From assembly GCF_965201005.1 (NCBI RefSeq), contig NZ_OZ241747.1:572000-635999 (forward strand): DNA of 64,000 nt, in the 5' to 3' direction. The DNA is from Mucilaginibacter sp. (GTDB lineage: Bacteria > Bacteroidota > Bacteroidia > Sphingobacteriales > Sphingobacteriaceae). A model generated the notes under the pieces. That model had not been told where the DNA came from. It saw only the letters and a program-made list of their open reading frames with translations, and ran no database searches. The position numbers and the translations under genes are program-made. Below are positions 6,166-60,506 of the stretch, piece by piece. Within the stretch, counting starts at the first letter, position 1. Every line of letters starts with the position of its first letter.

Positions 6166-6888
6166 ATGAAAAACAAGCAAGTATTCTTCGAGGATTGGGG
6201 CTTAATCGATTACAAAGAAGCCTGGGACAGGCAGGAAGCGATTTTTGCCGCCACCGTAAAACTGAAAACCGAACTGCGCAACCGCGGCGAAAACGATGCT
6301 TCTTTTACAGGCATAAAAACAGTAACGCACAATTATCTGATTTTTTGCGAACACCCGCACGTTTATACGCTGGGCAAAAGCGGCAAAAAAGAACATCTTC
6401 TATTGACCGAAGACCAACTTGCCGAAAAACATGCAGTTTTTTACCCGATCAACCGTGGCGGCGATATTACGTACCACGGGCCGGGGCAGTTGGTGGTTTA
6501 TCCGATTTTAGATTTGGACAACTTTTTTACCGATATCCATTTATATCTGCGCACTTTGGAGGAAGCCGTGATTTTGACTTTGGCTGATTTTGGCATCCCA
6601 GGCGGGCGTTATCCGGGTTATACCGGCGTTTGGCTTGATGCCGATGATCCGCAGAAAGCCCGTAAAATCTGTGCCCTTGGCGTGCGCTGCAGTCGCTGGG
6701 TTACCATGCACGGTTTGGCTTTCAACATCAACCCAAACCTCGGTTATTTTAAAAATATCATCCCCTGCGGGATTGAAGACAAAGCCGTAACCTCAATGGA
6801 GCAGGAACTGGGCAAAAAAGTACCGGTAAAAGAAGCATCAGAAGTTTTGAAACGGCATTTGTACATTTTATTTGGGATGCTGGCATGA
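6166..6888 (+). CDS. lipB: lipoyl(octanoyl) transferase LipB
   Basis: Motifs EHPHVYTLGKSGK, INRGGDITYHGPGQLVVYPILDL and KICALGVR...TMHGLAFNI are present. It contains two repeat-family copies (6295-6326 and 6825-6839). Confidence 0.9.
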   Translation: MKNKQVFFEDWGLIDYKEAWDRQEAIFAATVKLKTELRNRGENDASFTGIKTVTHNYLIFCEHPHVYTLGKSGKKEHLLLTEDQLAEKHAVFYPINRGGDITYHGPGQLVVYPILDLDNFFTDIHLYLRTLEEAVILTLADFGIPGGRYPGYTGVWLDADDPQKARKICALGVRCSRWVTMHGLAFNINPNLGYFKNIIPCGIEDKAVTSMEQELGKKVPVKEASEVLKRHLYILFGMLA

Positions 6889-8396: not shown

Positions 8397-8503
8397 TTAA
8401 AAATAATTAAGGTATAAATTATTTTACTGATAATAAGGGAGTTAAGAAACAGTTTTCGATCTGGTTCTGGTTTTGGACAAGGCTTTTCCAAAATCATCAA
8501 ACT

Positions 8504-8587
8504 ATGCTCACAATCTTGTTGTTCCTGGCACTGCTTATTAGCTGCTATTTTATTTTTAAAGCAATCGACTGGTTCGAAAAAATCTGA
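8504..8587 (+). CDS. 27-aa hydrophobic micro-ORF upstream of kdpF (possible leader or small membrane peptide)
   Basis: The ORF runs from ATG to TGA and encodes MLTILLFLALLISCYFIFKAIDWFEKI. It ends 4 nt before kdpF. No homology is recognised and it is below the ORF-track size cutoff. Confidence 0.25.
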   Translation: MLTILLFLALLISCYFIFKAIDWFEKI

Positions 8588-8591
8588 AATT

Positions 8592-8669
8592 ATGTTACTA
8601 CTATTCATCATCTCTATCGCAGTATTTATCTACATGATCTATGTACTGCTTAAACCTGAAAAATTTTAA
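8592..8669 (+). CDS. kdpF: K+-transporting ATPase subunit F
   Basis: 25-aa ORF MLLLFIISIAVFIYMIYVLLKPEKF. It has the single TM helix plus the (Y)xLLxPExF ending typical of KdpF and ends 10 nt before kdpA. Confidence 0.7.
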   Translation: MLLLFIISIAVFIYMIYVLLKPEKF

Positions 8670-8679
8670 CTGAAGTACA

Positions 8680-10398
8680 ATGAACACTGAATTACTTGGA
8701 ATCATTGCATCCTTTCTCATCACACTGATTATTGCCGTTCCGTTGGGCAAATACCTGGCAAAAATGTTTGCCGGTGAAAAGGTTTGGACTGATTTTATGA
8801 AACCACTCGAAAATGGTTTGTTCAAAATTTCCGGCATCAACCCGGGCGAGCCAATGAACTGGAAACAGTTTCTGAAAGCCATGATGACCATCAATATTTT
8901 ATGGCTGGTTTACGGCTTTTTTGTGTTGATGAACCAGGATAAACTACCGCTAAACCCGGACGGCAATCCCGGCATGTCGGCAGATTTGGCTTTTAACACC
9001 ATTATCAGCTTCGTGGTAAACTGCAACCTGCAGCATTACTCCGGCGAAAGCGGCGCAACTTATCTCACACAGCATTTCATTTTTATGTTCCTGCATTTTA
9101 CCAGTGCAGCTACCGGTATTGCTGCGGCCGTAGCAGTTTTTAAAGCTTTCCGCGATAAAACTACCACGGATTTGGGCAACTTTTGGAGCTATTTTGTAAA
9201 AACCATTACCCGTTTACTATTGCCGCTTTCTATTGTTATTGCGCTGATTTTGACGTTTAACGGAACGCCCTCAAGTTATGCGGGCAAAGACCGGTTTATA
9301 TCGATGCAAGGCGATACCGTAAATGTTTCCCGCGGACCGGCAGCGCAAATGATCGCTATAAAACATCTTGGCACAAACGGCGGCGGCTGGTTTGGTGCCA
9401 ACTCTGCACATCCGCTCGAAAACCCAAATTACCTGACAAATATGGTCGAAATCGTTTCGCAAATGATTATTCCGATGGCAATGGTTCTGGCTTTTGGCTA
9501 TTTTATCCGCAGGAAAAAATTAAGCCGGATCATTTTTGGCGTAATGATGGCCGGTTTGCTGATGCTTCTTTTACCCGCTATTTTTAGTGAATTGGGTGGA
9601 AATCCATCGATTGCGAAAATGGGCATCAGCCAGAACACCGGCGCAATGGAAGGTAAAGAAGTACGTTTCGGGCCAACCGCAACCGCTTATTGGAGCACGT
9701 TAACTACCATCACGTCAACTGGTTCTGTCAACGGAATGCACGACAGCACCATGCCGCTAACCGGTGCCTGGGAATTATTGGCGATGATGATTAACGCTTT
9801 TTTTGGCGGCTGCGGCGTAGGTATTTTAAATTACCTGATCTACCTGATTATCGCTGTTTTTATTGCCGGATTAATGGTAGGCCGCACACCAGAATTTTTA
9901 GGCCACAAAGTGGAAGCCCGCGAAGTAAAAATTGCCGCTCTGATTACGTTGCTGAGCCCGTTTTTAATTATGGCCGGAACTGCTTTGGCCAGTTATGTTT
10001 TTGTGGCGCACGGCAATGCCAACTGGGCAGTAAAGCCAACGTCCTGGCTCAATAATCCCGGCTTTCATGGCTTTTCGGAAATGCTGTATGAGTTTACTTC
10101 GGCCAATGCCAACAACGGTTCTGGTTTTGAAGGGCTGGGCGATAACAATATCTTCTGGAACGTTTCAACAGGTTTTGTGCTTATCCTCGGCCGCTTCCTG
10201 CCAATCATCGGCCCGGTGGCCATTGCAGGTTTACTGGCACAAAAGAAGTATGTGCCCGAATCTGCCGGAACGCTTAAAATTGATACCGTAACCTTCGGCG
10301 TTATAACGTTTGCCGTTATTATGGTTTTAAATGCCTTGTCGTATTTCCCTGCACTGGCTTTAGGCCCGCTGGCAGAGTATTTCTCTATGCCTAAATAA
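8680..10398 (+). CDS. kdpA: potassium-transporting ATPase subunit A
   Basis: 572-aa polytopic protein with KdpA signatures (NLQHYSGES, LGTNGGG, selectivity-filter-like repeats) in the operon position. Confidence 0.95.
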   Translation: MNTELLGIIASFLITLIIAVPLGKYLAKMFAGEKVWTDFMKPLENGLFKISGINPGEPMNWKQFLKAMMTINILWLVYGFFVLMNQDKLPLNPDGNPGMSADLAFNTIISFVVNCNLQHYSGESGATYLTQHFIFMFLHFTSAATGIAAAVAVFKAFRDKTTTDLGNFWSYFVKTITRLLLPLSIVIALILTFNGTPSSYAGKDRFISMQGDTVNVSRGPAAQMIAIKHLGTNGGGWFGANSAHPLENPNYLTNMVEIVSQMIIPMAMVLAFGYFIRRKKLSRIIFGVMMAGLLMLLLPAIFSELGGNPSIAKMGISQNTGAMEGKEVRFGPTATAYWSTLTTITSTGSVNGMHDSTMPLTGAWELLAMMINAFFGGCGVGILNYLIYLIIAVFIAGLMVGRTPEFLGHKVEAREVKIAALITLLSPFLIMAGTALASYVFVAHGNANWAVKPTSWLNNPGFHGFSEMLYEFTSANANNGSGFEGLGDNNIFWNVSTGFVLILGRFLPIIGPVAIAGLLAQKKYVPESAGTLKIDTVTFGVITFAVIMVLNALSYFPALALGPLAEYFSMPK

Positions 10399-14220: not shown

Positions 14221-14377
14221 GCCTGTTTAAATGTCGTCTGGTTTTTTGCAAATGCTTCTTTTATCGCCTAAAATTTGGTGTTTTTGTGTGAATTTTCAAT
14301 CAGCAACAAATATAAAAAACCAAATTTACAGGCATAAAAGAAGCATTGCAGTTTCTTCAACAGCAGTTTAAACAGGC
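14221..14377. repeat. full nested palindromic element of the ATGCTTCTTTTA family (157 bp)
   Basis: The outer arms are GCCTGTTTAAA (14221-14231) and TTTAAACAGGC (14367-14377), each 20 nt from the core. The core arms are ATGCTTCTTTTATCGCCTAAAATTTGGTG (from 14252) and CCAAATTTACAGGCATAAAAGAAGCAT (to 14346). The centre is variable. Confidence 0.85.
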
Positions 14378-14390
14378 TTTAAATATACCA

Positions 14391-14419
14391 ATGCTTCTTT
14401 TAGCACCTAAAAACAGTAT
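14391..14419. repeat. compact palindrome (A-type arm + B-type arm) abutting the kdpD-N start codon
   Basis: In ATGCTTCTTTTA-GCACC-TAAAAACAGTAT, the final AT of the element plus G14420 form the ATG start at 14418. Confidence 0.8.
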
Positions 14420-17347: not shown

Positions 17348-18774
17348 CAGCAATCAGGAATTGAAATCGGGATTTGTATCGCCAGGCCGCCATCCGCAGT
17401 TTCCTTGTATTTCGAGTTCATGTCCTGCGCGGTTTCCCACATCGTTTTTACCACGGCATCCAAGCTCACGCGTGCATTGTCCGGGTTGGATTGCAAGGCT
17501 AATTGCGATGCTGTGATCGCTTTGATCGCGCCCATCGTATTGCGCTCGATACAAGGCACTTGTACCAATCCGCCAATTGGGTCGCAGGTCATGCCCAGAT
17601 GATGTTCCATGGCAATTTCCGCAGCCATTAAAACCTGGCGTTGCGATCCGCCCAAAACTTCGGTTAAACCTGCCGCGGCCATGGCGGAGGAAACACCGAT
17701 TTCTGCCTGGCAGCCGCCCATCGCTGCCGAAATGGTAGAACCTTTTTTAAAAATACTGCCGATCTCCGAAGCCGTCAGCAAAAACCTGATAATCTGATCG
17801 ATACTGTTTTTATCACAGAAAATCAGGGCATAATGCAACACAGCCGGGATTACGCCTGCCGCGCCGTTGGTTGGTGCCGTAACCACCCGGCCAAACGAAG
17901 CGTTCTCTTCATTTACGGCCAAAGCAAAGCAGCTCACCCAATCCAAAATATACTGAAAACTGCTGCTTTTTTGTTTGATGGCCGCAACCCAGCTTTCGTA
18001 ATCCCGGTATTCTGCATCGCCCAAAAGCCTTTTGTTGCTGCGTGCCGCCCGCCGTGCCACGTTCAATCCGCCGGGCAAATAGCCGGAAGTGTGGCAGCCA
18101 CGGTACAAACATGTTTTCATCACTTCAAAAATCTGTAAAATACCGGTTTGGGTGGCTTCTTCGGATCGCCAGGCCAGTTCGTTTTCCATCACCACGTCGG
18201 AAATTTTCAGGCCGGTTTTCAAACACCAGTGCAGCAAATCATTGGCGGTATCAACCGGGAAGGGCAAATCAACTTCTGTTTTTGCTGCGGATTGTCCGTT
18301 TTCTTTCACTACAAAACCACCGCCGATAGAATAATACGTTTCTGAAATTGCTTTTCCATCTGCCAGAAAAGCCTGAAACGTAACCGCATTCGGGTGAAAA
18401 GGCAAACTGTTGTTCATCAAAAAAAGCAAATCATGGCCGATACTGAAACCAATGCTGTTTTTACCACCTAAATTTAGTTGTTGGTTGATGGCAATGCTTT
18501 CGATTTTTGGCTCGATCTGATCCACCGGAAACGTAACGGGATCATCTCCGCTTAAACCTAATAAAACGGCAATGTCCGTTCCGTGGCCTTTCCCGGTTTT
18601 GGCCAGCGAACCATACAGCAGGATTTTGATCTGTATAACTGATTCCATCAAATTGGCATCCTCCAGCAAAACCACAAACTGCTGCGCCGCCCGCCACGGC
18701 CCCAAAGTATGCGAACTGGACGGCCCGATACCGATTTTAAACATATCAAAAACAGAAATCTGCTCTTTTTGCAT
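17347..18774 (-). CDS. sdaA: L-serine ammonia-lyase (single-chain, iron-sulfur dependent)
   Basis: Starts [20 protein letters not shown] and contains [16 protein letters not shown] and C.ERN. It carries two B-type repeat copies (17801 and 18452). Confidence 0.9.
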
Positions 18775-19395: not shown

Positions 19396-19414
19396 ACATT
19401 TTTTGGCAGAAACA

Positions 19415-19447
19415 AAAAAGCTTGTCTGGTTTCCCAAACAAGCTTTC
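19415..19447 (-). terminator. rho-independent terminator of groES-groEL
   Basis: On the minus strand the sequence is AAAGCTTGT-loop-ACAAGCTTTTTTGTTT. This is a 9-bp stem plus T-run, about 40 nt after the groEL stop. Confidence 0.7.
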
Positions 19448-19483
19448 AGTATATATTAAAATTTATAATGGTTGCACAGCTGA

Positions 19484-22049: not shown

Positions 22050-23825
22050 TCAGTTTATTTTTTTCTCTATTTCTGTTAGTTGGGCTGCAAAGTAAACGCT
22101 TTTTTCCGGAAATTTCAACAGCAGCTTTTTATAAGTATCTAAGGCTTTGTGGTAAAGCATTTGGTCCAAGTAAACTTTTGCCAGCGTTTCCGTCACCAAA
22201 ATATCTGCATCTTCCGAACTCTTTTTAGCCTTGTTTTCTGTGTCCAACTTATCCATACTTGGCGGGTGGATGTGCGGTTCTTCAATAATAAAACGTTCAA
22301 TCAGCTGCTTCTCCTTCTTTTTAACTGGCAATTCTTCTATCGGCGGCAACACGTTTTCGGGCACTTTCAGCGGTGCTTTGGTATGAAAAATACTTTCTAT
22401 ATATTGCTGGTGCAGCTCCGGGCCAACGCTTAAATCAGTGTTGTTTTGTACATTTTTAGTGTAAGGCTGATAGTTCCCATCATGTTCTTTGCGCGTTCTG
22501 TCCAGCCACCACATAAACGTGTACGGCATTTTATCATCATGATATTTGGAAACCGTATCTGCTTCATTTTCAGTTTGATAATCCGTTTTTATAGGTTCAG
22601 CCAAAGCTTTTTCTAATGGATCATCACCTTTTTCTATCAATTGTTTTTCAGTTTCAGGCGTTTGGTTTTGCCCGAATTTCTGGTTAAAAGAAAAATAATC
22701 GATCGAAGCAATGTTGCTCAGCATTGCTTTTTCCGCCTCATCGCGGGCATTTAAAGGTGTTTCTTCCGAAGTAATTTCGGGTGTAACTGCAACTTCCGGT
22801 GCTAATGATTCAGGTTCGGATCCGGGAACAATTTGGGGCGATGCTTCTTTTACCACCTCAAATTTGATGTCCTCAATCGCCATGATTTCCTCAAAAACCT
22901 CTTCGTCAATTTCCTGGCCGGCGGGTTTTTGATTAAAGTTTTCTTCGAATGCTAAAATCGTTGGTTCAGGGAAAACAAGTTTTTCATCGTCCTCATTTAC
23001 AAATGTTTGGCTTATGTCTTCTGCCCGGAAATCATTTTCGGCAGCCATTGCTTCCTCCAAATTTTCACCTGTAAAAGAAGCATCAACGTTTTCTGCGGAA
23101 GGGATATCTTCTGTAAAAACCGCTTCCTCGTCCTCAATTTCCGCAGGTTTTGGTTCGATAAAAGCCGCGTCGGTAGTTTCCTGCGGATCAGTTTCTTCCG
23201 ATTTTTCCTGACTATCGGTTCCGGTCAAATTTCCCTCAATAAAAACAGCATCGTTTTCTGCGGAAGGAGCAGCCCCGGCCACATCTGAATCCGCAGTAAC
23301 CACTTCCAGTTCCAAATCAATAAACGCGGCATTGTTGATTTCGTCAGCAGGTATTTCATCCGAAAAGTCCGCTTCCGTTTCAGGTTTTGGGTTGATAAAA
23401 ACAGTATTGGTTTCTTCTTTCGCAGCAACTTCCACCGGATAATTTGCTGCAAAAGCTGCCGGTGCGTCCACCAAATTTTCCTCTGTAAAAACAGTATCAG
23501 TTGTTGTTTTATGATCGGTTTTACTTCCATCAAAACCAACAAAACGATCTGGTTTTGGCGCAACCAGCAATTCCGGCCGGTGGATCAGCCGGAACAAAAC
23601 TTCCCGGTTTGCCGCATAAACTGCCGCCGAACGAAGTGCTTTTTCTGCAATTTCGGCATCTGGCTTTTGCACTGCTTTGGCCAGCAACATCCGGAAAATA
23701 CCGCAGGCCGGATAATTTTGCACCAACGCTTCCAACTGCTGCCGGTGCATTGCGTTTGCCGCCGCCGGATTGGCCAATAGTTGCTGCAAAAATTCGGGGT
23801 TTAACCCGTTTTGTATCTGATCCAC
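22050..23825 (-). CDS. acidic repeat protein with a C-terminal TPR-like helix pair
   Basis: 591 aa. The central Asp/Glu-rich region carries the repeated peptide D-[AT]-[AVS]-F-[TI]-x-[EG]-N-L, encoded by the genome-wide repeat motif. The C-terminus is ...ETLAKVYLDQMLYHKALDTYKKLLLKFPEKSVYFAAQL. Confidence 0.7.
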   Translation of the reverse strand: MDQIQNGLNPEFLQQLLANPAAANAMHRQQLEALVQNYPACGIFRMLLAKAVQKPDAEIAEKALRSAAVYAANREVLFRLIHRPELLVAPKPDRFVGFDGSKTDHKTTTDTVFTEENLVDAPAAFAANYPVEVAAKEETNTVFINPKPETEADFSDEIPADEINNAAFIDLELEVVTADSDVAGAAPSAENDAVFIEGNLTGTDSQEKSEETDPQETTDAAFIEPKPAEIEDEEAVFTEDIPSAENVDASFTGENLEEAMAAENDFRAEDISQTFVNEDDEKLVFPEPTILAFEENFNQKPAGQEIDEEVFEEIMAIEDIKFEVVKEASPQIVPGSEPESLAPEVAVTPEITSEETPLNARDEAEKAMLSNIASIDYFSFNQKFGQNQTPETEKQLIEKGDDPLEKALAEPIKTDYQTENEADTVSKYHDDKMPYTFMWWLDRTRKEHDGNYQPYTKNVQNNTDLSVGPELHQQYIESIFHTKAPLKVPENVLPPIEELPVKKKEKQLIERFIIEEPHIHPPSMDKLDTENKAKKSSEDADILVTETLAKVYLDQMLYHKALDTYKKLLLKFPEKSVYFAAQLTEIEKKIN

Positions 23826-27268: not shown

Positions 27269-29104
27269 ATGAAATTTAGAAGGTTACGCCGCAGATTTAA
27301 AAAATTACGCCGTAAAAAATGGTTCAAAAGGCTGGTTTTGCCTTTGTTTGTGCTGCTGTTTTTTACGCTGATAATTGCGCTGGCCATCAATATTTACTTC
27401 TCGCCGGTTTTGTCCAATCAGCTAAAAAAAACGGTTTTTAAGTGGGGAAACGGTTTGTATCAGATTGATTTTGAGAGAAGTAGCCTGCATGTGTTGGCCG
27501 GCCGCATTGTGATCGATCACCTCAGCCTGAAACCCGACACGGCTGTTTTTGACCGGCTAAAAAAAGCAGGCAAAGCACCAAATAATCTGTACACGCTTTC
27601 GGTTGACAGGATAGTTTTTAAACATATCCATCCGTTTAAACTGTATTTTAAAAAGGAGTTTGAGGTAGATGAAATTTCCGTCAGCAAACCAAATGTGCAG
27701 GTTTTTTACCAAGATCTGCACCAGCCGGAACGCATCAAAAACGATCCGAAAACGATTTACCAGGAAATTGCAGGCACGCTGAAATCGATCCATGTTGGCC
27801 GGATTTTGGCGGATAACATCAGTTTGCGTTATCAGGAAAAAACCGCTGGCGGGACACGCATCCGGCATCTGCAGAAAATCAACCTGAAAGCAAGCGATTT
27901 TCTGATTGATCAAAGCAGCCAGTTGGATCAAAAACGTTTTAATTTTTGCCGGGACATTACCGCTTCCATCAGCGATTATGCACTGCAGACTGAAAACCAT
28001 CAGCATGAATTTACGGCCAAATCAGTCACGTTTTCCAGTTCAAAAGCAAGCGTGAAACTAATTGATGCTGTTTTTATGCCGGTAAAAACAGCATCGCCAA
28101 CGCCAGATCAGCGGCGGCGCGAACTGCAGATGGAAAGTGATTCGGTGTGTATCAATCACTTTGATTATCAGCAATTTATTTCAAACAGAAAAATAAAAGC
28201 TTCGGATGTAACCGTTTTTGGCCGAAAAATAAGCTTCTTTTATAACCGAAATTTGCCCCGCCCTGAAAAACCTGCGGGTGCGGCCAAAACCGGTTTGTAC
28301 AAACTATTGAAAAGCGTGCATCGGGACATCAACATCCAAACCATCAATTTTAAAAACGTGGAAGTGGTTTATGCAGAGATCAGTGCCAAAACCAAGCTGC
28401 TCGGCGTGATAACTTTTGAAAACTTGAACGGTTCCATCAGCAATTTCCTTACCGGAAACGATCCGCTGCAGGCCAACCGCAACATAACGGCCAGTTTAAC
28501 GGCCAACTTGATGGGTTACGGCAAACTGAACGCCAATTTGCAGTTTGATGCGGCCAGCCCGGCCAATATTTTATATTATAAAGGCAGTTTGGGCGTGATG
28601 AACTTAGTGAACCTGAACAACGCCACCAAGCCGCTTGGCCTGATCCAGTTTACCAATGGGATTGTGACCAGTTTGGATTTTGATATGCAGGCCGATGCAC
28701 AAAAAGCCATCGGAAAAGTTACCTTTTTGTATAATGATCTGAATGTAATTTTGCTTAAGCAGGACGAGAAAAATGGCTTGCACCGCATGTCGTTTATGTC
28801 GATTTTGGCCAATGCTTTTGTGCTGATCCGCGATAACCCACGCCAGAATGCTGCCGCAAGGGTTGCAGATGTGGTTTATTTGCGGCCGGAAAACACATCT
28901 TATCTGGGTTTGATCTGGCGTTCGGTTTATGCCGGGATCAAAGAATCGATTGGTTTATCCGCGGAAGTTGAGCAAAAACTGCGGCAAAAAGTGGTTGATT
29001 ACAAGCAGAACAAAGAAATACGCAATCAAAAAAAAGCCGGCCGGCAGGAGCGGAGGCGGTTGCGCCGCTTAAAAAGAAACCTAAAAGAAGCACAGGATGA
29101 TTAA
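27269..29104 (+). CDS. membrane-anchored hypothetical protein (basic N-terminus + single TM; possibly AsmA/DUF748-like)
   Basis: Starts MKFRRLRRRFKKLRRKKWFKRLVLPLFVLLFFTLIIALAINIY and has a basic C-terminal tail. The ORF-track start at 27218 is TTG, so ATG 27269 is preferred. The family call is weak. Confidence 0.6.
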   Translation: MKFRRLRRRFKKLRRKKWFKRLVLPLFVLLFFTLIIALAINIYFSPVLSNQLKKTVFKWGNGLYQIDFERSSLHVLAGRIVIDHLSLKPDTAVFDRLKKAGKAPNNLYTLSVDRIVFKHIHPFKLYFKKEFEVDEISVSKPNVQVFYQDLHQPERIKNDPKTIYQEIAGTLKSIHVGRILADNISLRYQEKTAGGTRIRHLQKINLKASDFLIDQSSQLDQKRFNFCRDITASISDYALQTENHQHEFTAKSVTFSSSKASVKLIDAVFMPVKTASPTPDQRRRELQMESDSVCINHFDYQQFISNRKIKASDVTVFGRKISFFYNRNLPRPEKPAGAAKTGLYKLLKSVHRDINIQTINFKNVEVVYAEISAKTKLLGVITFENLNGSISNFLTGNDPLQANRNITASLTANLMGYGKLNANLQFDAASPANILYYKGSLGVMNLVNLNNATKPLGLIQFTNGIVTSLDFDMQADAQKAIGKVTFLYNDLNVILLKQDEKNGLHRMSFMSILANAFVLIRDNPRQNAAARVADVVYLRPENTSYLGLIWRSVYAGIKESIGLSAEVEQKLRQKVVDYKQNKEIRNQKKAGRQERRRLRRLKRNLKEAQDD

Positions 29105-34021: not shown

Positions 34022-34067
34022 GATGCTTCTTTTAGCAGGTAAATTTTAAGGCGATAAAAGAAGCATC
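34022..34067. repeat. minimal ATGCTTCTTTTA-family element (46 bp) just after the stop of 34071..35381
   Basis: The sequence is GATGCTTCTTTTAGCAGGTAAATTTTAAGGCGATAAAAGAAGCATC. It probably acts as the 3' hairpin of the minus-strand gene. Confidence 0.85.
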
Positions 34068-41018: not shown

Positions 41019-41101
41019 ATGCTTCTTTTATCACCTAAAATTTGGTGGTTTGCCGATAGTATTAATTACCAAAACAAAATTTACAGGCATAAAAGAAGCA
41101 T
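41019..41101. repeat. ATGCTTCTTTTA-family palindromic element (L...R, 83 bp), near-consensus copy
   Basis: The arms are ATGCTTCTTTTATCACCTAAAATTTGGTGGTTT... and ...AAAATTTACAGGCATAAAAGAAGCAT. An outer arm GCCTGTTTAAA sits at 40990-41000. Confidence 0.9.
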
Positions 41102-50678: not shown

Positions 50679-50746
50679 CAAATTTAGGTTGATAAAAGAA
50701 GCATTGGATATATAATTGATACGATGCTTCTTTTATCAACTATTTT
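50679..50746. terminator. repeat-family hairpin (R...L) acting as a bidirectional terminator between convergent genes
   Basis: GTTGATAAAAGAAGCAT-19 nt-ATGCTTCTTTTATCAAC is a 17-bp stem flanked by T-rich tracts on both strands. It begins 1 nt after the + gene stop, and the last stem base is the first base of the minus-gene stop-codon complement (50740-50742). Confidence 0.75.
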
Positions 50747-51234
50747 TCGTCTGCCGATGGCCCGTATAATCCCGGAACCGGCAGATCATTCAGCCTTAAA
50801 TAAACGGTTAACTGGCCACGATGATGAATAAAGTGGTTCATCACGATAAAACGCAAAACGTTAATACGCGGCATATCAAAAATAATATGGTTGCCGTGCT
50901 GTAGTTTCCAGTTGGCCAATAACGTTTCATCCGAAGCACTTTCCAGCGCGGCCAAAGCATTGGCCACGTGCTTTTTGTGGTTTTGCAGAAGTTCTGCCTG
51001 TGTTGCCGCAGGTATCGGCCGATTGTCAGGAACGGAAAAATCCATATTTTCTTGTTGGATAATCGGTGTAATCCAGGAGGTTAGCTGTGCAACATGATTG
51101 GCCAGGGCACCAATGCTCATGCTTTTTTCGTGCGGTTTCCAGCCAAATTTTTCATCAGGGATACGTTCAAAAATCCGTTCGGTTAAAGCGGATTCGCGTT
51201 TTAATTCTTGTATAAATGCTTCGTTTAAGGCCAT
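50740..51234 (-). CDS. DinB-family protein
   Basis: 164-aa four-helix pattern with spaced His residues (..LANHVAQL.., ..HFIHHRGQLTVYLR). Confidence 0.7.
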   Translation of the reverse strand: MALNEAFIQELKRESALTERIFERIPDEKFGWKPHEKSMSIGALANHVAQLTSWITPIIQQENMDFSVPDNRPIPAATQAELLQNHKKHVANALAALESASDETLLANWKLQHGNHIIFDMPRINVLRFIVMNHFIHHRGQLTVYLRLNDLPVPGLYGPSADEK

Positions 51235-52726: not shown

Positions 52727-55700
52727 ATGTTGGGATTTATCAGTAAGCTTTTCGGTAATAAATCGGAGCGGGACGTTAAAGGCGTGCAGCCTTTGGTAGA
52801 AAAAATAAAGGCAGAATTTGCCAAGCTGGAGCAGATCAGTAATGATGAGTTGCGCGCAAAAACCATCGATTTCAAAGCCCGGATCAGTGCAGGCTTAGAA
52901 AAAACCGATGCCGAAATCAAAGCCGCAAAAGAGGAAGCAGAAAACGATTCTTCTATCGAAGTAAACCGCAAAGTGGAACTTTACGGTGAAATTGATAAGC
53001 TGGAAAAAGACCGCAACAAAGAGCTTGAAGTTATTTTGATGGAGATTTTGCCGGAAGCTTTTGCCGTGGTAAAAGAAACAGCGCGCCGCCTGGCCAATAA
53101 TAAAACGCTGGAAGTTACGGCCACAGATTTCGATCGGGAACTGGCAGCTCATAAAAAGAACGTTTTGATTTCGGGCGATAAAGCCATTCACCACAACTCC
53201 TGGCTGGCTGCCGGAAACGAAGTAACGTGGAACATGGTACATTATGATGTGCAGCTGATTGGCGGTATCGTTTTGCACGAAGGAAAAATTGCCGAAATGG
53301 CAACAGGTGAAGGTAAAACGCTGGTGGCAACATTACCTGCTTACCTGAATGCCCTGGCCGGGCAAGGCGTGCACATCGTTACCGTGAATGATTATCTGGC
53401 CCGTCGGGACAGTGAATGGATGGGCCCATTGTATGAGTTTCATGGCTTGTCGGTAGATTGTATAGATCGCCATGAGCCAAACTCCGAAGAACGCAGAAAT
53501 GCTTATTTAGCAGATATTACCTTTGGCACCAACAACGAATTTGGTTTTGATTACCTGCGTGACAACATGACACGCAGCCCTGAAGAACTGGTACAGCGCA
53601 AACTGCATTACGCGATGGTGGATGAGGTGGATTCGGTTTTAATTGATGACGCCCGTACGCCGCTGATAATTTCTGGGCCGGTTCCGCGTGGTGATGAGCA
53701 TGAGTTTTATGATTTGAAACCACGTATTGAACGTTTGGTAAACGTACAGAAAGCGTACATAACCACCAAGCTGAATGAAGCCAAAAAGCAAATTGCGGAA
53801 GGAAAATCCGGTGTGGATGAAGGCGGTTTGGCATTGTTGCGGGCACATCGCGGTTTACCAAAAAACAAAGCTTTGATCAAGTTTTTGAGCGAGCAGAACA
53901 TCAAACCGGTGCTCAACAAAACCGAAAACTATTACATGCAGGATCAGAATAAAGAAATGCCCAAAGTGGATGAGGAGCTTTATTTTGTAATTGATGAAAA
54001 AAACAACTCGGTAGAACTGACCGAAAAAGGGATTGAACTGATCACCACTTCCGGTGAAGATCCGCACTTTTTTGTAATGCCGGACGTGGGTACGGAAGTT
54101 GCCGAAATTGAAAAATCAAGTTTTTCTGCAGAAGAAAAAGTAGCTAAAAAAGATGAGTTGATGCGCGATTTTTCCATCAAATCAGAACGTATCCATTCTG
54201 TAAACCAGTTGCTTAAAGCTTATACTTTGTTTGAGCGCGATACCGAATACATTTTGGATGATGGAAAAGTAAAGATCGTGGATGAGCAAACCGGCCGTGT
54301 TTTAGATGGCCGTCGTTATTCTGATGGTTTGCACCAGGCTATTGAAGCCAAAGAAAATGTGAAGGTGGAAGATGCCTCGCAAACTTTTGCAACAGTTACG
54401 CTGCAAAACTATTTTAGAATGTATCACAAATTGTGCGGTATGACGGGTACAGCAGTTACCGAAGCCGGTGAATTCTGGGAAATATACAAGCTGGACGTGG
54501 TAGAAATACCGACCAATACACCTGCAAGCCGTGCTGATCGTCAGGATTTGGTTTACCGGACCATGCGCGAAAAATACAATGCCGTTGCCGATGAAATTGT
54601 AACGTTAACGCAAGCTGGCCGACCGGTTTTGGTGGGTACAACTTCCGTAGAAATATCTGAATTATTAAGCCGGATGTTGAAATTGCGTGGCATTAAACAT
54701 AACGTTTTGAACGCCAAAATGCACCAGAAAGAAGCGGATATTGTTGCTGAAGCCGGTAAAACCGGAACCGTAACCATTGCCACCAATATGGCTGGCCGTG
54801 GTACAGATATTAAGCTGGGCGAAGGAGTAAAAGATGCCGGTGGTTTGGCCATTGTGGGCACAGAACGCCATGAATCCCGCCGGGTTGACCGGCAGTTGCG
54901 CGGTCGTTCCGGTCGTCAGGGTGATCCGGGTTCTTCGCAGTTTTTCGTTTCGCTGGAAGATGATCTGATGCGTTTGTTCGGTTCCGAACGGATTTCGGGA
55001 CTGATGGTAAAAATGGGCATTGAGGATGGTGAAGTAATCCAGCATTCCATGATCACCAAATCTATCGAACGCGCACAGAAAAAAGTAGAAGAGAACAACT
55101 TTGGCATCCGTAAACGTTTGCTGGAGTATGATGACGTGATGAACTCGCAGCGTACCGTTATCTACACGCGCCGTAAAAATGCGTTGTTTGGCGAACGGCT
55201 GGATGTTGATTTGAACAATACCATTTTTGATGTAACAGAAGATGTGGTAACCGAGTTTAAAGACGCCAACAACTATGAAGGTTTTCAGTTGGAGATGATC
55301 CGTTTGTTTTCAGTTGATACAGCAATTACAGCCGAAGATTTTACCGCTAAAAACAGTATGGCATTGGTTGAAACGGCTTTCCACGAGATTACGGATTTTT
55401 ATAAACGCAAATCAGAGGCGATTGCCAAACAGGCTTATCCAGTTTTGAAAGATGTTTATGATACGCGCGGCAACATGATCGAAAACATTATTGTGCCTTT
55501 TACAGATGGTGTTCATGGCATTCAAGTTGCTGTCCCGTTGCAAAAAGCAGTGGAAAACAATGGTCAGGAAGTATTGAAATCCTTCGAGAAAAACGTGGTT
55601 TTGACCTTTATTGATGATGCCTGGAAAGAACATTTGCGCGAAATGGACGAGCTGAAGCAATCAGTACAAAACGCCGTTTACGAGCAGAAAGACCCGTTGC

Positions 55701-56045: not shown

Positions 56046-56519
56046 ATGACACACCAAAATTTATACCCTAAAAGAAGCATCCGGGCAACACCAGTCTGGA
56101 TGCTTCTTTTATCAATGTTTTTTCTGACTGTAAAATCCTCCGCACAAATACGCGGGGAAGTTGAGGTAATCAAAGACCCGCGGATTGATTCGATCATTGC
56201 ACACCGTTTAATCGATATAAAATCCCCGTTAGGAAAAATCGGAAACAGTTCTGGTTATGGCTATCGTGTACAGTTTTTCATCAGCCCAAAACGCAATGAA
56301 ATTTATGCAAAACAGGCTGCTTTTAATGAGCTTTATCCTGATTTGCGCACCTATATTATTTATCGCGAACCTAATTACAAGCTCAAAGCCGGTGATTTCA
56401 GGACTCGGTTGGAAGCACAAAAACTGATGCGCGATATCCGGCCGCAGTTTCCAACGTTGTTTTTGCTTTCCGAAAAAATCAATCTACCTAAACCCGACGC
56501 TGCTGATGCTAAAAACTAA
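56046..56519 (+). CDS. SPOR-domain protein (start ambiguous: ATG 56046 or ATG 56100)
   Basis: The C-terminal SPOR-like region is GYGYRVQFF...YKLKAGDFRTRLEAQKLM. The N-terminus MTHQNLYPKRSIRATPVWMLLLSMFFLTVKSSAQ is encoded by the palindrome. Confidence 0.65.
   Translation: MTHQNLYPKRSIRATPVWMLLLSMFFLTVKSSAQIRGEVEVIKDPRIDSIIAHRLIDIKSPLGKIGNSSGYGYRVQFFISPKRNEIYAKQAAFNELYPDLRTYIIYREPNYKLKAGDFRTRLEAQKLMRDIRPQFPTLFLLSEKINLPKPDAADAKN
56054..56113. repeat. repeat-family hairpin (R...L) between secA and the SPOR gene, inside the SPOR ORF's 5' end
   Basis: CCAAAATTTATACCCTAAAAGAAGCATCC-15 nt-GGATGCTTCTTTTATC has a 14-bp stem. Confidence 0.85.
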
Positions 56520-59987: not shown

Positions 59988-60506
59988 TCAGGTTAAAGTT
60001 TTTTCCATCAGCCAATCACATTGCTTATCATTCCCAAGTTTAAAATCCATTTCCCCGGTTTTTACAAATCCCCAATCCAAATAAAAGTTGATTGCTTTTT
60101 GGTTGTGTTCCCAAACGCCCAGCCATAGTTTTTCAGCTTGATTTTTTCGGGAGAAATCAATGGCAAATTGCATCAAACCTGCACCAACTTTTTGATTATG
60201 ATAAAGTTTGGAAACATACAATCTTGAAAGTTCTGCTGATTTTATGCCGGTAAAAGAAGCATCCGTCAATATCAGTTTCATACAACCAACGGGCATACTG
60301 TTTTTAGTGGCATAAAAACAGTATGTGTTTAGATCAGCTAATTCTTGTTGAATCTTTTCAATTGCAAAACTCTCTTCCAGATACAATTTCATATCTTCTG
60401 CAGAATTAGACTCAGCAAAAGTTTCTTTAAATAAAGCTGCACCAAACTTTGCAAATCCGACAGCTTCTTCGATAGTTACTTGGCGGATGGAAACTTCCGG
60501 ATTCAT
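59988..60506 (-). CDS. GNAT-family N-acetyltransferase
   Basis: Has an acetyl-CoA-binding pattern (RLYVSKLYHNQKVGAGLMQ). It contains two compact repeat palindromes (60234-60262 and 60294-60325). Confidence 0.8.
   Translation of the reverse strand: MNPEVSIRQVTIEEAVGFAKFGAALFKETFAESNSAEDMKLYLEESFAIEKIQQELADLNTYCFYATKNSMPVGCMKLILTDASFTGIKSAELSRLYVSKLYHNQKVGAGLMQFAIDFSRKNQAEKLWLGVWEHNQKAINFYLDWGFVKTGEMDFKLGNDKQCDWLMEKTLT

Follow-up and report, generated by a model that had tools for sequence, protein, structure and literature searches.

Analysis of a 64-kb stretch of Mucilaginibacter sp. DNA with 55 called open reading frames (ORFs), which as a whole is referred to here as the window, indicated that a dispersed DNA repeat specific to this lineage has copies in the octanoyltransferase gene lipB and in a GNAT N-acetyltransferase gene, a reading to which we assign a probability of about 0.8. 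The same rough figure applies to the descriptive explanation as a whole, in which the coding copies arose in place by substitution, at unconstrained or already motif-like sites, and have since stayed constant in nucleotide sequence, even at synonymous positions, throughout the motif-bearing subclade. Since the copies are built by substitution and are constant at the nucleotide level, the peptide that the two proteins share is therefore a by-product of a nucleotide-level process. An earlier sequence-only reading had noticed that one compact palindrome lies in frame in both genes and gives both the peptide DASFTGIK. The shared peptide is real: lipB 6295-6318(+) and GNAT 60240-60263(-) are identical at 23 of 24 nucleotides (nt), and the full 32-nt copies at 27 of 32. 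Both ORFs read the copy in the frame xAT GCT TCT TTT Axx, as D-A-S-F-T-G-I-K, with lipB encoding DASFTGIKTVT (context ...NDASFTGIKTVT...) and the GNAT gene encoding DASFTGIKSAE (context ...TDASFTGIKSAE...). The site proposed in the GNAT gene was the right one, although its coordinates were off by 1-2 nt. Searching for the 24-mer with up to 3 mismatches returned 4 sites in the window, as against 0.00 expected from shuffles.

Each focal copy consists of one exact half-site, a spacer and a degenerate second arm. In lipB, a G and the exact half-site ATGCTTCTTTTA (6296-6307) are followed by the spacer CAGGCA and the degenerate arm TAAAAACAGTAA (6314-6325), and in the GNAT gene a G and the exact half-site (60251-60262) are followed by the spacer CCGGCA and then by TAAAA plus a degenerate arm. 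These copies are quasi-palindromes only, as their 13-nt arms are complementary at 9 of 13 positions, and they folded no better than shuffled sequences (z of -0.5 and -0.2 for RNA, +0.2 and -0.7 for DNA), so the word palindrome overstated them. It does fit two other members of the family, both perfect over 30 nt: one in a gene for an AsmA-like protein, which encodes DAVFMPVKTA in the same frame as the lipB and GNAT copies (fold z -6.2), and a second one in the GNAT gene itself, which encodes YCFYATKNSM in a beta hairpin (fold z -6.9; Table 1). Mapping of the two focal sites, raised earlier as possible surface loops, placed the GNAT copy in a beta-beta loop, residues 83-88 between the strands E71-82 and E89-98 of the AlphaFold2 model, which is the block of lowest predicted local distance difference test score (pLDDT) in an otherwise good model (pLDDT 93). 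In LipB, the stretch that contains the copy is a hypervariable linker joining helix 1 to the EHPHVYTLG strand, and it is flanked by two blocks that align to Thermus LipB, as judged from homology to Protein Data Bank structures and from alignments; the AlphaFold model of LipB was of low confidence (pLDDT 52) and was not used for loop mapping.

The half-site turned out to be highly abundant. The core ATGCTTCTTTTA occurs exactly 42 times in the window, and its two variants ATRCTGTTTTTA (ATGCTGTTTTTA and ATACTGTTTTTA) add 26 further occurrences, giving 68 exact half-sites in 64 kb, or about 1 per kb. With up to one mismatch the number rises to 102, distributed evenly between the strands (52 + and 50 -), which rules out a Chi- or KOPS-like polarity. 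At 0, 1, 2 and 3 mismatches we counted 68, 34, 71 and 355 sites, where a third-order Markov model predicted 0.1, 4.8, 56 and 362, and the excess was thus confined to exact and near-exact copies. A chance resemblance of two AT-rich coding segments, for which AT-richness alone would speak, can be dismissed on these counts, both by the 24-mer search and by the 42 exact copies of the 12-mer against 0.1 expected. Read inward from the half-site, the consensus extends over about 30 nt, (G)ATGCTTCTTTTA-YCRCC or CNGGCA-TAAAA-TTTGGTGG. The motif is accordingly one of about 24-30 nt, made up of (G)ATGCTTCTTTTA, a 5-6-nt spacer, TAAAA and then either an inverted second arm or TTTGGTGG, and its half-sites pair either as compact 30-nt palindromes or as longer intergenic units. 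No Rfam family matched anywhere in the window at gathering thresholds, and the searchable literature held nothing relevant on the motif string, on Mucilaginibacter repeats or on Mucilaginibacter competence; the repeat family appears to be undescribed, its sequence being absent from that literature. The top 10-mers of other Bacteroidota loci were tandem arrays or protein repeats and were rejected as analogues.

LipB of the window is 100% identical to a Mucilaginibacter sp. protein. The motif is limited to one subclade of Mucilaginibacter, M. arboris included. Eight relatives with DASFTGIK, M. arboris among them, carried 2-12 exact copies each per 9-20 kb. By comparison, the locus of the nearest LipB orthologue that lacks the peptide (L085, 76% identity) had 0 copies in 10 kb, and 80 other Bacteroidota loci had neither motif nor peptide. 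These 80 control loci came from a contig scan with a LipB profile in which the best LipB identity among the matches listed was 73%; among those matches were seven Mucilaginibacter or close relatives, at no more than 73% LipB identity, and no member of the DASFTGIK clade. The peptide was also looked for in motif-poor genomes, where its presence would point to an ancestral, functional sequence; all examined genomes that encode DASFTGIK at these sites (L081-L084 and L086-L089) proved to be motif-rich. A scan of metagenomes for inverted pairs yielded 120 loci (L090-L209) comprising 1.09 Mb, with 649 exact copies of the main form, while neither the extended motif of 22 nt nor an inverted pair of 74-104 bp turned up in viral contigs (0 matches), and a blastn search of PLSDB plasmids with one unit gave none.

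Two routes to the coding copies had been considered from the sequence alone, an in-frame insertion of about 11 codons like that of a Rickettsia palindromic element (RPE) and a conversion of pre-existing codons toward the motif. By the first, a mobile palindrome of about 30 nt, similar to RPEs or to repetitive extragenic palindromic (REP) sequences, would have inserted in frame and added about 10 codons in surface loops, and in-frame insertions of REPs and RPEs are indeed documented in other bacteria (PMC3733652; PMC6006769). The discrete lengths of the intergenic units, one class of which has a conserved interior, are also as expected of copied elements, and the LipB linker is about 9-10 residues longer across the genus Mucilaginibacter than in Pedobacter, Sphingobacterium, Dyadobacter and other Bacteroidota, in line with the earlier reading. 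However, motif-free Mucilaginibacter species have a linker of equal or greater length, with 12 residues in the nearest motif-free outgroup (P0023/L085) and 13 in the window, so the expansion predates the motif. Moreover, none of the 12 coding sites that we compared with motif-free homologues (3 in LipB, 2 in GNAT, 2 in serine dehydratase, 1 in the AsmA-like protein and 4 others), two perfect 30-nt palindromes included, showed an element-sized indel, and nine coding copies besides the LipB linker and the two GNAT sites differ by substitution alone. We therefore consider insertion highly improbable, and of the two routes the conversion of existing codons is the one borne out by the orthologues.

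In LipB, all orthologues of at least 78% identity carry DASFTGIK or a one-residue variant of it, whereas all of those at 76% or below carry an unrelated linker of equal or greater length, and near the C-terminus VKEAS stands against a same-length INEVK in the outgroups. Both motif sites in GNAT lack an element-sized gap relative to homologues of 29-47% identity (0-2 columns, in a variable loop), and in one of these homologues, P0168, the sequence ..EESISGEKPI.. is already similar to the peptide of the motif. The AsmA-like palindrome, DAVFMPVKTA, corresponds without an indel to DDINLEPVSPE or GLVFEPVNPH in homologues of 31-36% identity. Substitution-only differences were likewise seen in a TonB-dependent receptor (TBDR)-like protein (NTVFT versus NKVFT or NNVFT), in serine dehydratase (GGKNSIG versus GGTHAIS, and CDKNSID versus CDGFDEQ) and in ORF929 (GIKTV versus GIKTA), and in SecA, at 55348, the motif can be seen to have been approached step by step through point changes. 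At several sites (NKVFT, GIKTA, GLVFEPVN) the ancestral peptide was a near-match already, which speaks further against insertion.

Within the motif-bearing subclade the copies are held at the nucleotide level. Across the clade the codons for DASFTGIK read GAT GCT TCT TTT ACM GGY ATA AAA, in which TCT is the only Ser codon and GCT the only Ala codon, whereas the flanking codons vary synonymously. In orthologous coding comparisons a family member was kept in 38 of 56 cases (68%), 32 of them identical and 6 switched to another variant, whereas control 12-mers were kept in 11.7% at an overall identity of 81%. The switch between the TC and GT variants requires two adjacent changes, yet it was as frequent as any single mismatch (9 versus 9). 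In L084 both arms of the lipB copy have changed together, raising their complementarity from 9/13 to 11/13. As a separate observation, the orthologous sites at 18452, 56069 and 57695 (compared with L081-L089) hold ATGCTTCTTTTA or ATRCTGTTTTTA depending on the species, and the two-base switch recurs independently, as if just two discrete states were allowed.

These data bear on another alternative, namely that DASFTGIK or DAxF is a functional peptide, convergent or ancestral, under selection at the protein level, the DNA similarity being secondary. The peptide is kept in all clade orthologues of both proteins, and a 591-residue ORF has eight DAxF[IT]-like repeats, four of them with non-motif codons, which shows that peptides of this type can occur in the absence of the exact DNA motif. 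On the other hand, the codons are invariant at synonymous sites (Ser TCT, Ala GCT, Ile ATA) amid varying flanks, the peptide is missing from every orthologue in motif-free genomes, its positions fall in a linker that is hypervariable and in a loop modelled with low confidence, and the motif is equally common in antisense and other frames, where it gives KEA, KNSI, KTV and MLLL, and commoner still between genes. We regard protein-level selection as a very poor explanation for the shared sequence.

The coding sequences (CDS) contain 33 of the 68 exact copies (49%). The main form contributes 14 of these, of which 4 read DASF or HASF in the sense frame xAT GCT TCT TTT A, and the variants are mostly coding (19 of 26). 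The frames of the GT variant are sharply preferred, with KNS[IM] found 9 times, [DN][AT]VF 5 times and the frame containing TAA 0 times. A third in-frame DASFTG in the window lies in the 591-residue ORF, which is acidic and of low complexity and has further copies at 23240, 23396 and 23486. This ORF (22050-23825, minus strand) has no Pfam match; its repeats of the type [DN]-x-[AVS]-F-[IT]-E number eight, of which four are encoded by exact motif copies and four by non-motif codons, and three of the four exact copies hold the full extended motif of about 30 nt in frame, as in GAT ACT GTT TTT ACA GAG GAA AAT TTG GTG, encoding DTVFTEENLV. Either a pre-existing peptide repeat is undergoing conversion here, or motif-derived repeats are in decay.

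Between genes the family takes a different form. Intergenic DNA makes up 10% of the window but contains 28 of the 42 copies of the main form, a density about 19-fold higher than within genes, and intergenic half-sites occupy 7 of 7 convergent spacers as against 2 of 10 divergent ones, often 0-50 nt from a stop codon. The intergenic copies are inverted pairs downstream of genes with discrete lengths of 30, 44, 58 and 93-94 bp, peaking at 93-94 bp (74 of 168 units). In the unit of about 93 bp the ends, ATGCTTCTTTTA...TAAAAGAAGCAT, are inverted with respect to each other, and the subterminal sequence adjoining them is conserved over about 30 nt. The hairpin foot is (G/A)ATGC, the outside flanks show just a weak T at -5, and 135 units had no direct flanking repeats above chance that would mark target-site duplications. 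Comparison of the window with its relatives gave no clean unit-sized indels within the BLAST alignments, the intergenic regions of presence or absence being too divergent to call. As for the individual classes, the 58-bp units form a subclass, ATGCTTCTTTTA-TGCCTGTAAATTTTGTGTTTGCATTTTATACCGA-TAAAAGAAGCAT, with a conserved, asymmetric interior, which recurs at several unrelated metagenome loci (e.g. L165 5530-5587, L204 1712-1769 and L190 145-202), and the 30-, 44- and 58-bp classes are spaced by 14 bp.

Taken together, the family looks REP/REPIN-like between genes and behaves in a DNA-uptake-sequence-like manner inside genes. In the mechanism that we propose, a drive at the DNA level, or density-dependent selection, would pull near-matches to exact matches genome-wide, and protein constraint would filter the surviving frames, sites and variants. 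GT variants prevail in genes and, at orthologous positions, replace the main form or are replaced by it, and between genes the same core makes up fixed-length inverted doublets of REPIN type immediately downstream of genes. For the driving force itself, our tentative candidate is a REP/REPIN-type system in which a cognate DNA-processing protein acts with short-patch templated conversion. The family resembles REPs, bacterial interspersed mosaic elements (BIMEs) and REPINs, which are high-copy, imperfect palindromes of 20-40 nt, in its 30-nt palindromes and 68 exact half-sites, in that its intergenic copies lie mostly just downstream of genes that are convergent or point in the same direction and rarely between divergent ones (PMC3733652), and in forming sharply spaced inverted doublets that lack target-site duplications, are lineage-specific and are vertically retained. 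In addition, atypical, AT-rich REP-like structures adjoin TnpAY1 genes of subclass 2.6 in Bacteroidetes (PMC6006769). In contrast to REPs and REPINs, there is no GT[AG]G or CGTC tetranucleotide at the hairpin foot, and roughly one in two exact copies is intragenic and substitution-built, while REPs within genes are described as having been inserted. Neither a REP-associated tyrosine transposase (RAYT) or other transposase nor an Ssn nuclease was found by Pfam across essentially all 55 ORFs of the window, and no RAYT or Ssn candidate appeared among ORFs flanked on both sides by repeats in the 1.3 Mb of DNA covered from the clade, a search with little power to detect a single-copy gene.

An uptake signal like the DNA uptake sequence (DUS, a 12-mer in Neisseria) or the uptake signal sequence (USS) of Pasteurellaceae would work differently: biased uptake followed by homologous recombination would spread mutations that improve the match, and the inverted pairs would be a side product. 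Here, as in those systems, a short exact core of 12 nt occurs about once per kb on both strands, many copies are genic, in few preferred frames and at poorly conserved residues, built by substitution from near-matches and leading to enriched peptides, inverted pairs lie downstream of genes, and related species share the motif at conserved positions with dialect-like variants. Uptake sequences are known to arise in just this way, with a drive that protein constraint opposes (PMC2817400), and the intragenic fraction of 49% is nearer to that of DUS (34%) than to that of hairpin repeats served by Ssn nucleases, such as NTS (about 2%; PMC11893778). Nevertheless, such signals are known just in Neisseriaceae and Pasteurellaceae, that is, in a different phylum, and no literature on competence in Mucilaginibacter was found; the main form is much more strongly biased to intergenic DNA than uptake sequences are, and the extended consensus of about 30 nt with fixed-length inverted doublets (30, 44, 58 and 93-94 bp), of which the 44-, 58- and 93-94-bp units have conserved ends of about 30 nt and sometimes a conserved interior, is atypical of them. 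We consider an uptake-like bias possible, though somewhat doubtful, as the driving force, and selection for dense sites of a putative chromosomal binding protein unlikely. The 12-mer might also let this lineage recognise its own DNA during uptake or recombination, a conjecture that we hold to be more unlikely still.

Other known repeats share single properties with the family. Like RPEs, it is a palindromic repeat that is translated in frame, at surface-exposed positions of unrelated, functional proteins; unlike RPEs, which are insertions of 100-150 bp that add residues, its genic units measure 12-30 nt. Miniature inverted-repeat transposable elements also have terminal inverted repeats, but there were no target-site duplications in the 135 units, and no recurrent transposase family was found by all-against-all clustering of 1,211 ORFs from the 120 metagenome loci. 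The cyanobacterial highly iterated palindrome HIP1 (GCGATCGC) is a similar case, a short motif that is likewise hyper-abundant within and outside genes, arises by substitution and is conserved at the same positions in orthologues. It differs in being a perfect palindrome of 8 bp that is associated with methyltransferase sites, whereas the core described here is a 12-nt asymmetric sequence that is palindromic only in pairs. Translated dispersed repeats are already known from RPEs, intragenic REPs, USS/DUS and HIP1; what marks this family is the combination of REPIN-like intergenic doublets with substitution-built coding copies that resemble uptake sequences, perfect 30-nt palindromes in conserved genes included.

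Several points weigh against the description given above or limit it. The relatives compared at the DNA level are a small sample, four genomes of the LipB clade (L081-L084) and four of the GNAT clade (L086-L089), the orthologue comparisons are phylogenetically non-independent, and the nearest motif-free homologues of GNAT and the AsmA-like protein are just 31-47% identical. The LipB linker resists residue-by-residue alignment, and an insertion with a compensating deletion is possible there. The intergenic units, above all the 58-bp class with its conserved interior, look copied and not substitution-built, and one mechanism may not explain both the genic and the intergenic compartment. Finally, we infer the driving force, because no protein partner (RAYT, Ssn or a competence receptor) was found.

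If the reading is correct, a nucleotide-level process rewrites protein in a soil Bacteroidota lineage, so that unrelated proteins gain identical peptides (DASFTGIK, DAVF.., KNSI, KEA) and perfect DNA palindromes arise within enzymes without insertion. The family joins REPIN-like fixed-length doublets and uptake-sequence-like genic copies, which are normally treated apart. Should the motif be a signal for uptake or recombination, it would be the first uptake-sequence-like system known in Bacteroidota or anywhere beyond Neisseriaceae and Pasteurellaceae, and its molecular drive would have to suffice for constructing perfect 30-nt palindromes within conserved genes through substitutions alone. 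Since the clade is culturable (M. arboris), the driving force is directly testable. Motifs of this kind also give spurious local similarity that can mislead tools for homology, recombination and annotation, ATG-containing copies at apparent gene starts being one example. The coordinates of the features are collected in Table 1.

Table 1. Genes, coding copies and intergenic units of the repeat family in the window
Feature	Position	Strand	Description
lipB (octanoyltransferase) ORF	6166-6888	+	
GNAT N-acetyltransferase ORF	59988-60506	-	
lipB copy	6295-6326	+	reads GATGCTTCTTTTACAGGCATAAAAACAGTAAC
GNAT copy	60232-60263	-	reads GATGCTTCTTTTACCGGCATAAAATCAGCAGA
Second exact half-site in lipB	6827-6838	- (antisense)	reads VKEAS near C-terminus
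Second family member in GNAT gene	60295-60324	-	perfect 30-nt palindrome ATACTGTTTTTA-TGCCAC-TAAAAACAGTAT
AsmA-like/DUF748 copy	28065-28094	+	perfect 30-nt palindrome ATGCTGTTTTTA-TGCCGG-TAAAAACAGCAT
Third in-frame DASFTG	23072-23083	-	peptide VDASFTGENLE
Intergenic unit, about 93 bp	14252-14346		long hairpin, fold z -9.5
Intergenic unit, 83 bp	41019-41101		second of two in tandem after glycosyltransferase gene
Intergenic unit, 93 bp	62283-62375		fold z -8.1
Intergenic unit, 44-bp class	34023-34066		between convergent genes

Some further observations concern gene boundaries. The ATG of the motif may be the true start codon at 14391-14402, in a KdpD-like gene whose N-terminus would read MLLLAPKNS..., and at 56100-56111, in the gene after secA (MLLLSMFFLTV...). 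If the latter start holds, the hairpin at 56069-56111 is located in the spacer downstream of secA and is non-coding. In the loci of the clade the motif repeatedly encodes the peptide MLLL. Canonical terminators, bidirectional or intrinsic, adjoin motif copies at 1940-1982 and 19400-19450 (AAAAAGCCGTTTCA...TGAAACGGCTTTTT and AAGCTTGTCTGG...CCAAACAAGCTTT), one copy standing between stop codon and terminator and another past the terminator; the presence of these GC-rich hairpin-plus-T terminators beside motif copies rules out termination as the sole function of the motif. A DinB-family gene (50740-51234; variable segment 50679-51306) lies between a thioredoxin-like gene and purD, but two relatives lack it in the corresponding spacer (L088 18647-18760 and L089 19158-19263), the variable segment being bracketed by conserved motif copies beside the ends of both flanking genes.

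With regard to taxonomy, the identity of GNAT and AsmA-like homologues falls abruptly from at least 55-64% in the motif clade to at most 36-47% in other Mucilaginibacter, which suggests from sequence comparison that the motif clade is deep, possibly a genus-level lineage. Proteins from metagenome-assembled genomes (MAGs) labelled 'Janthinobacterium lividum', a betaproteobacterium, were 70-87% identical to these Mucilaginibacter genes (P0007, P0008, P0010, P0139, P0147, P0150, P0198 and P0216 among them), and the label is probably a taxonomic error of the MAGs. Among the other loci, L075 has an array of GGTTTCTCAAAACC hairpin repeats at 8466-8770, and L068, from the Bacteroidota MAG CTOTU10745, contains an unrelated motif, CATATAT-N12-AAAAAATGCTTT, at 9 sites in 12.8 kb on both strands, which may be a lineage-specific promoter-like or repeat element.

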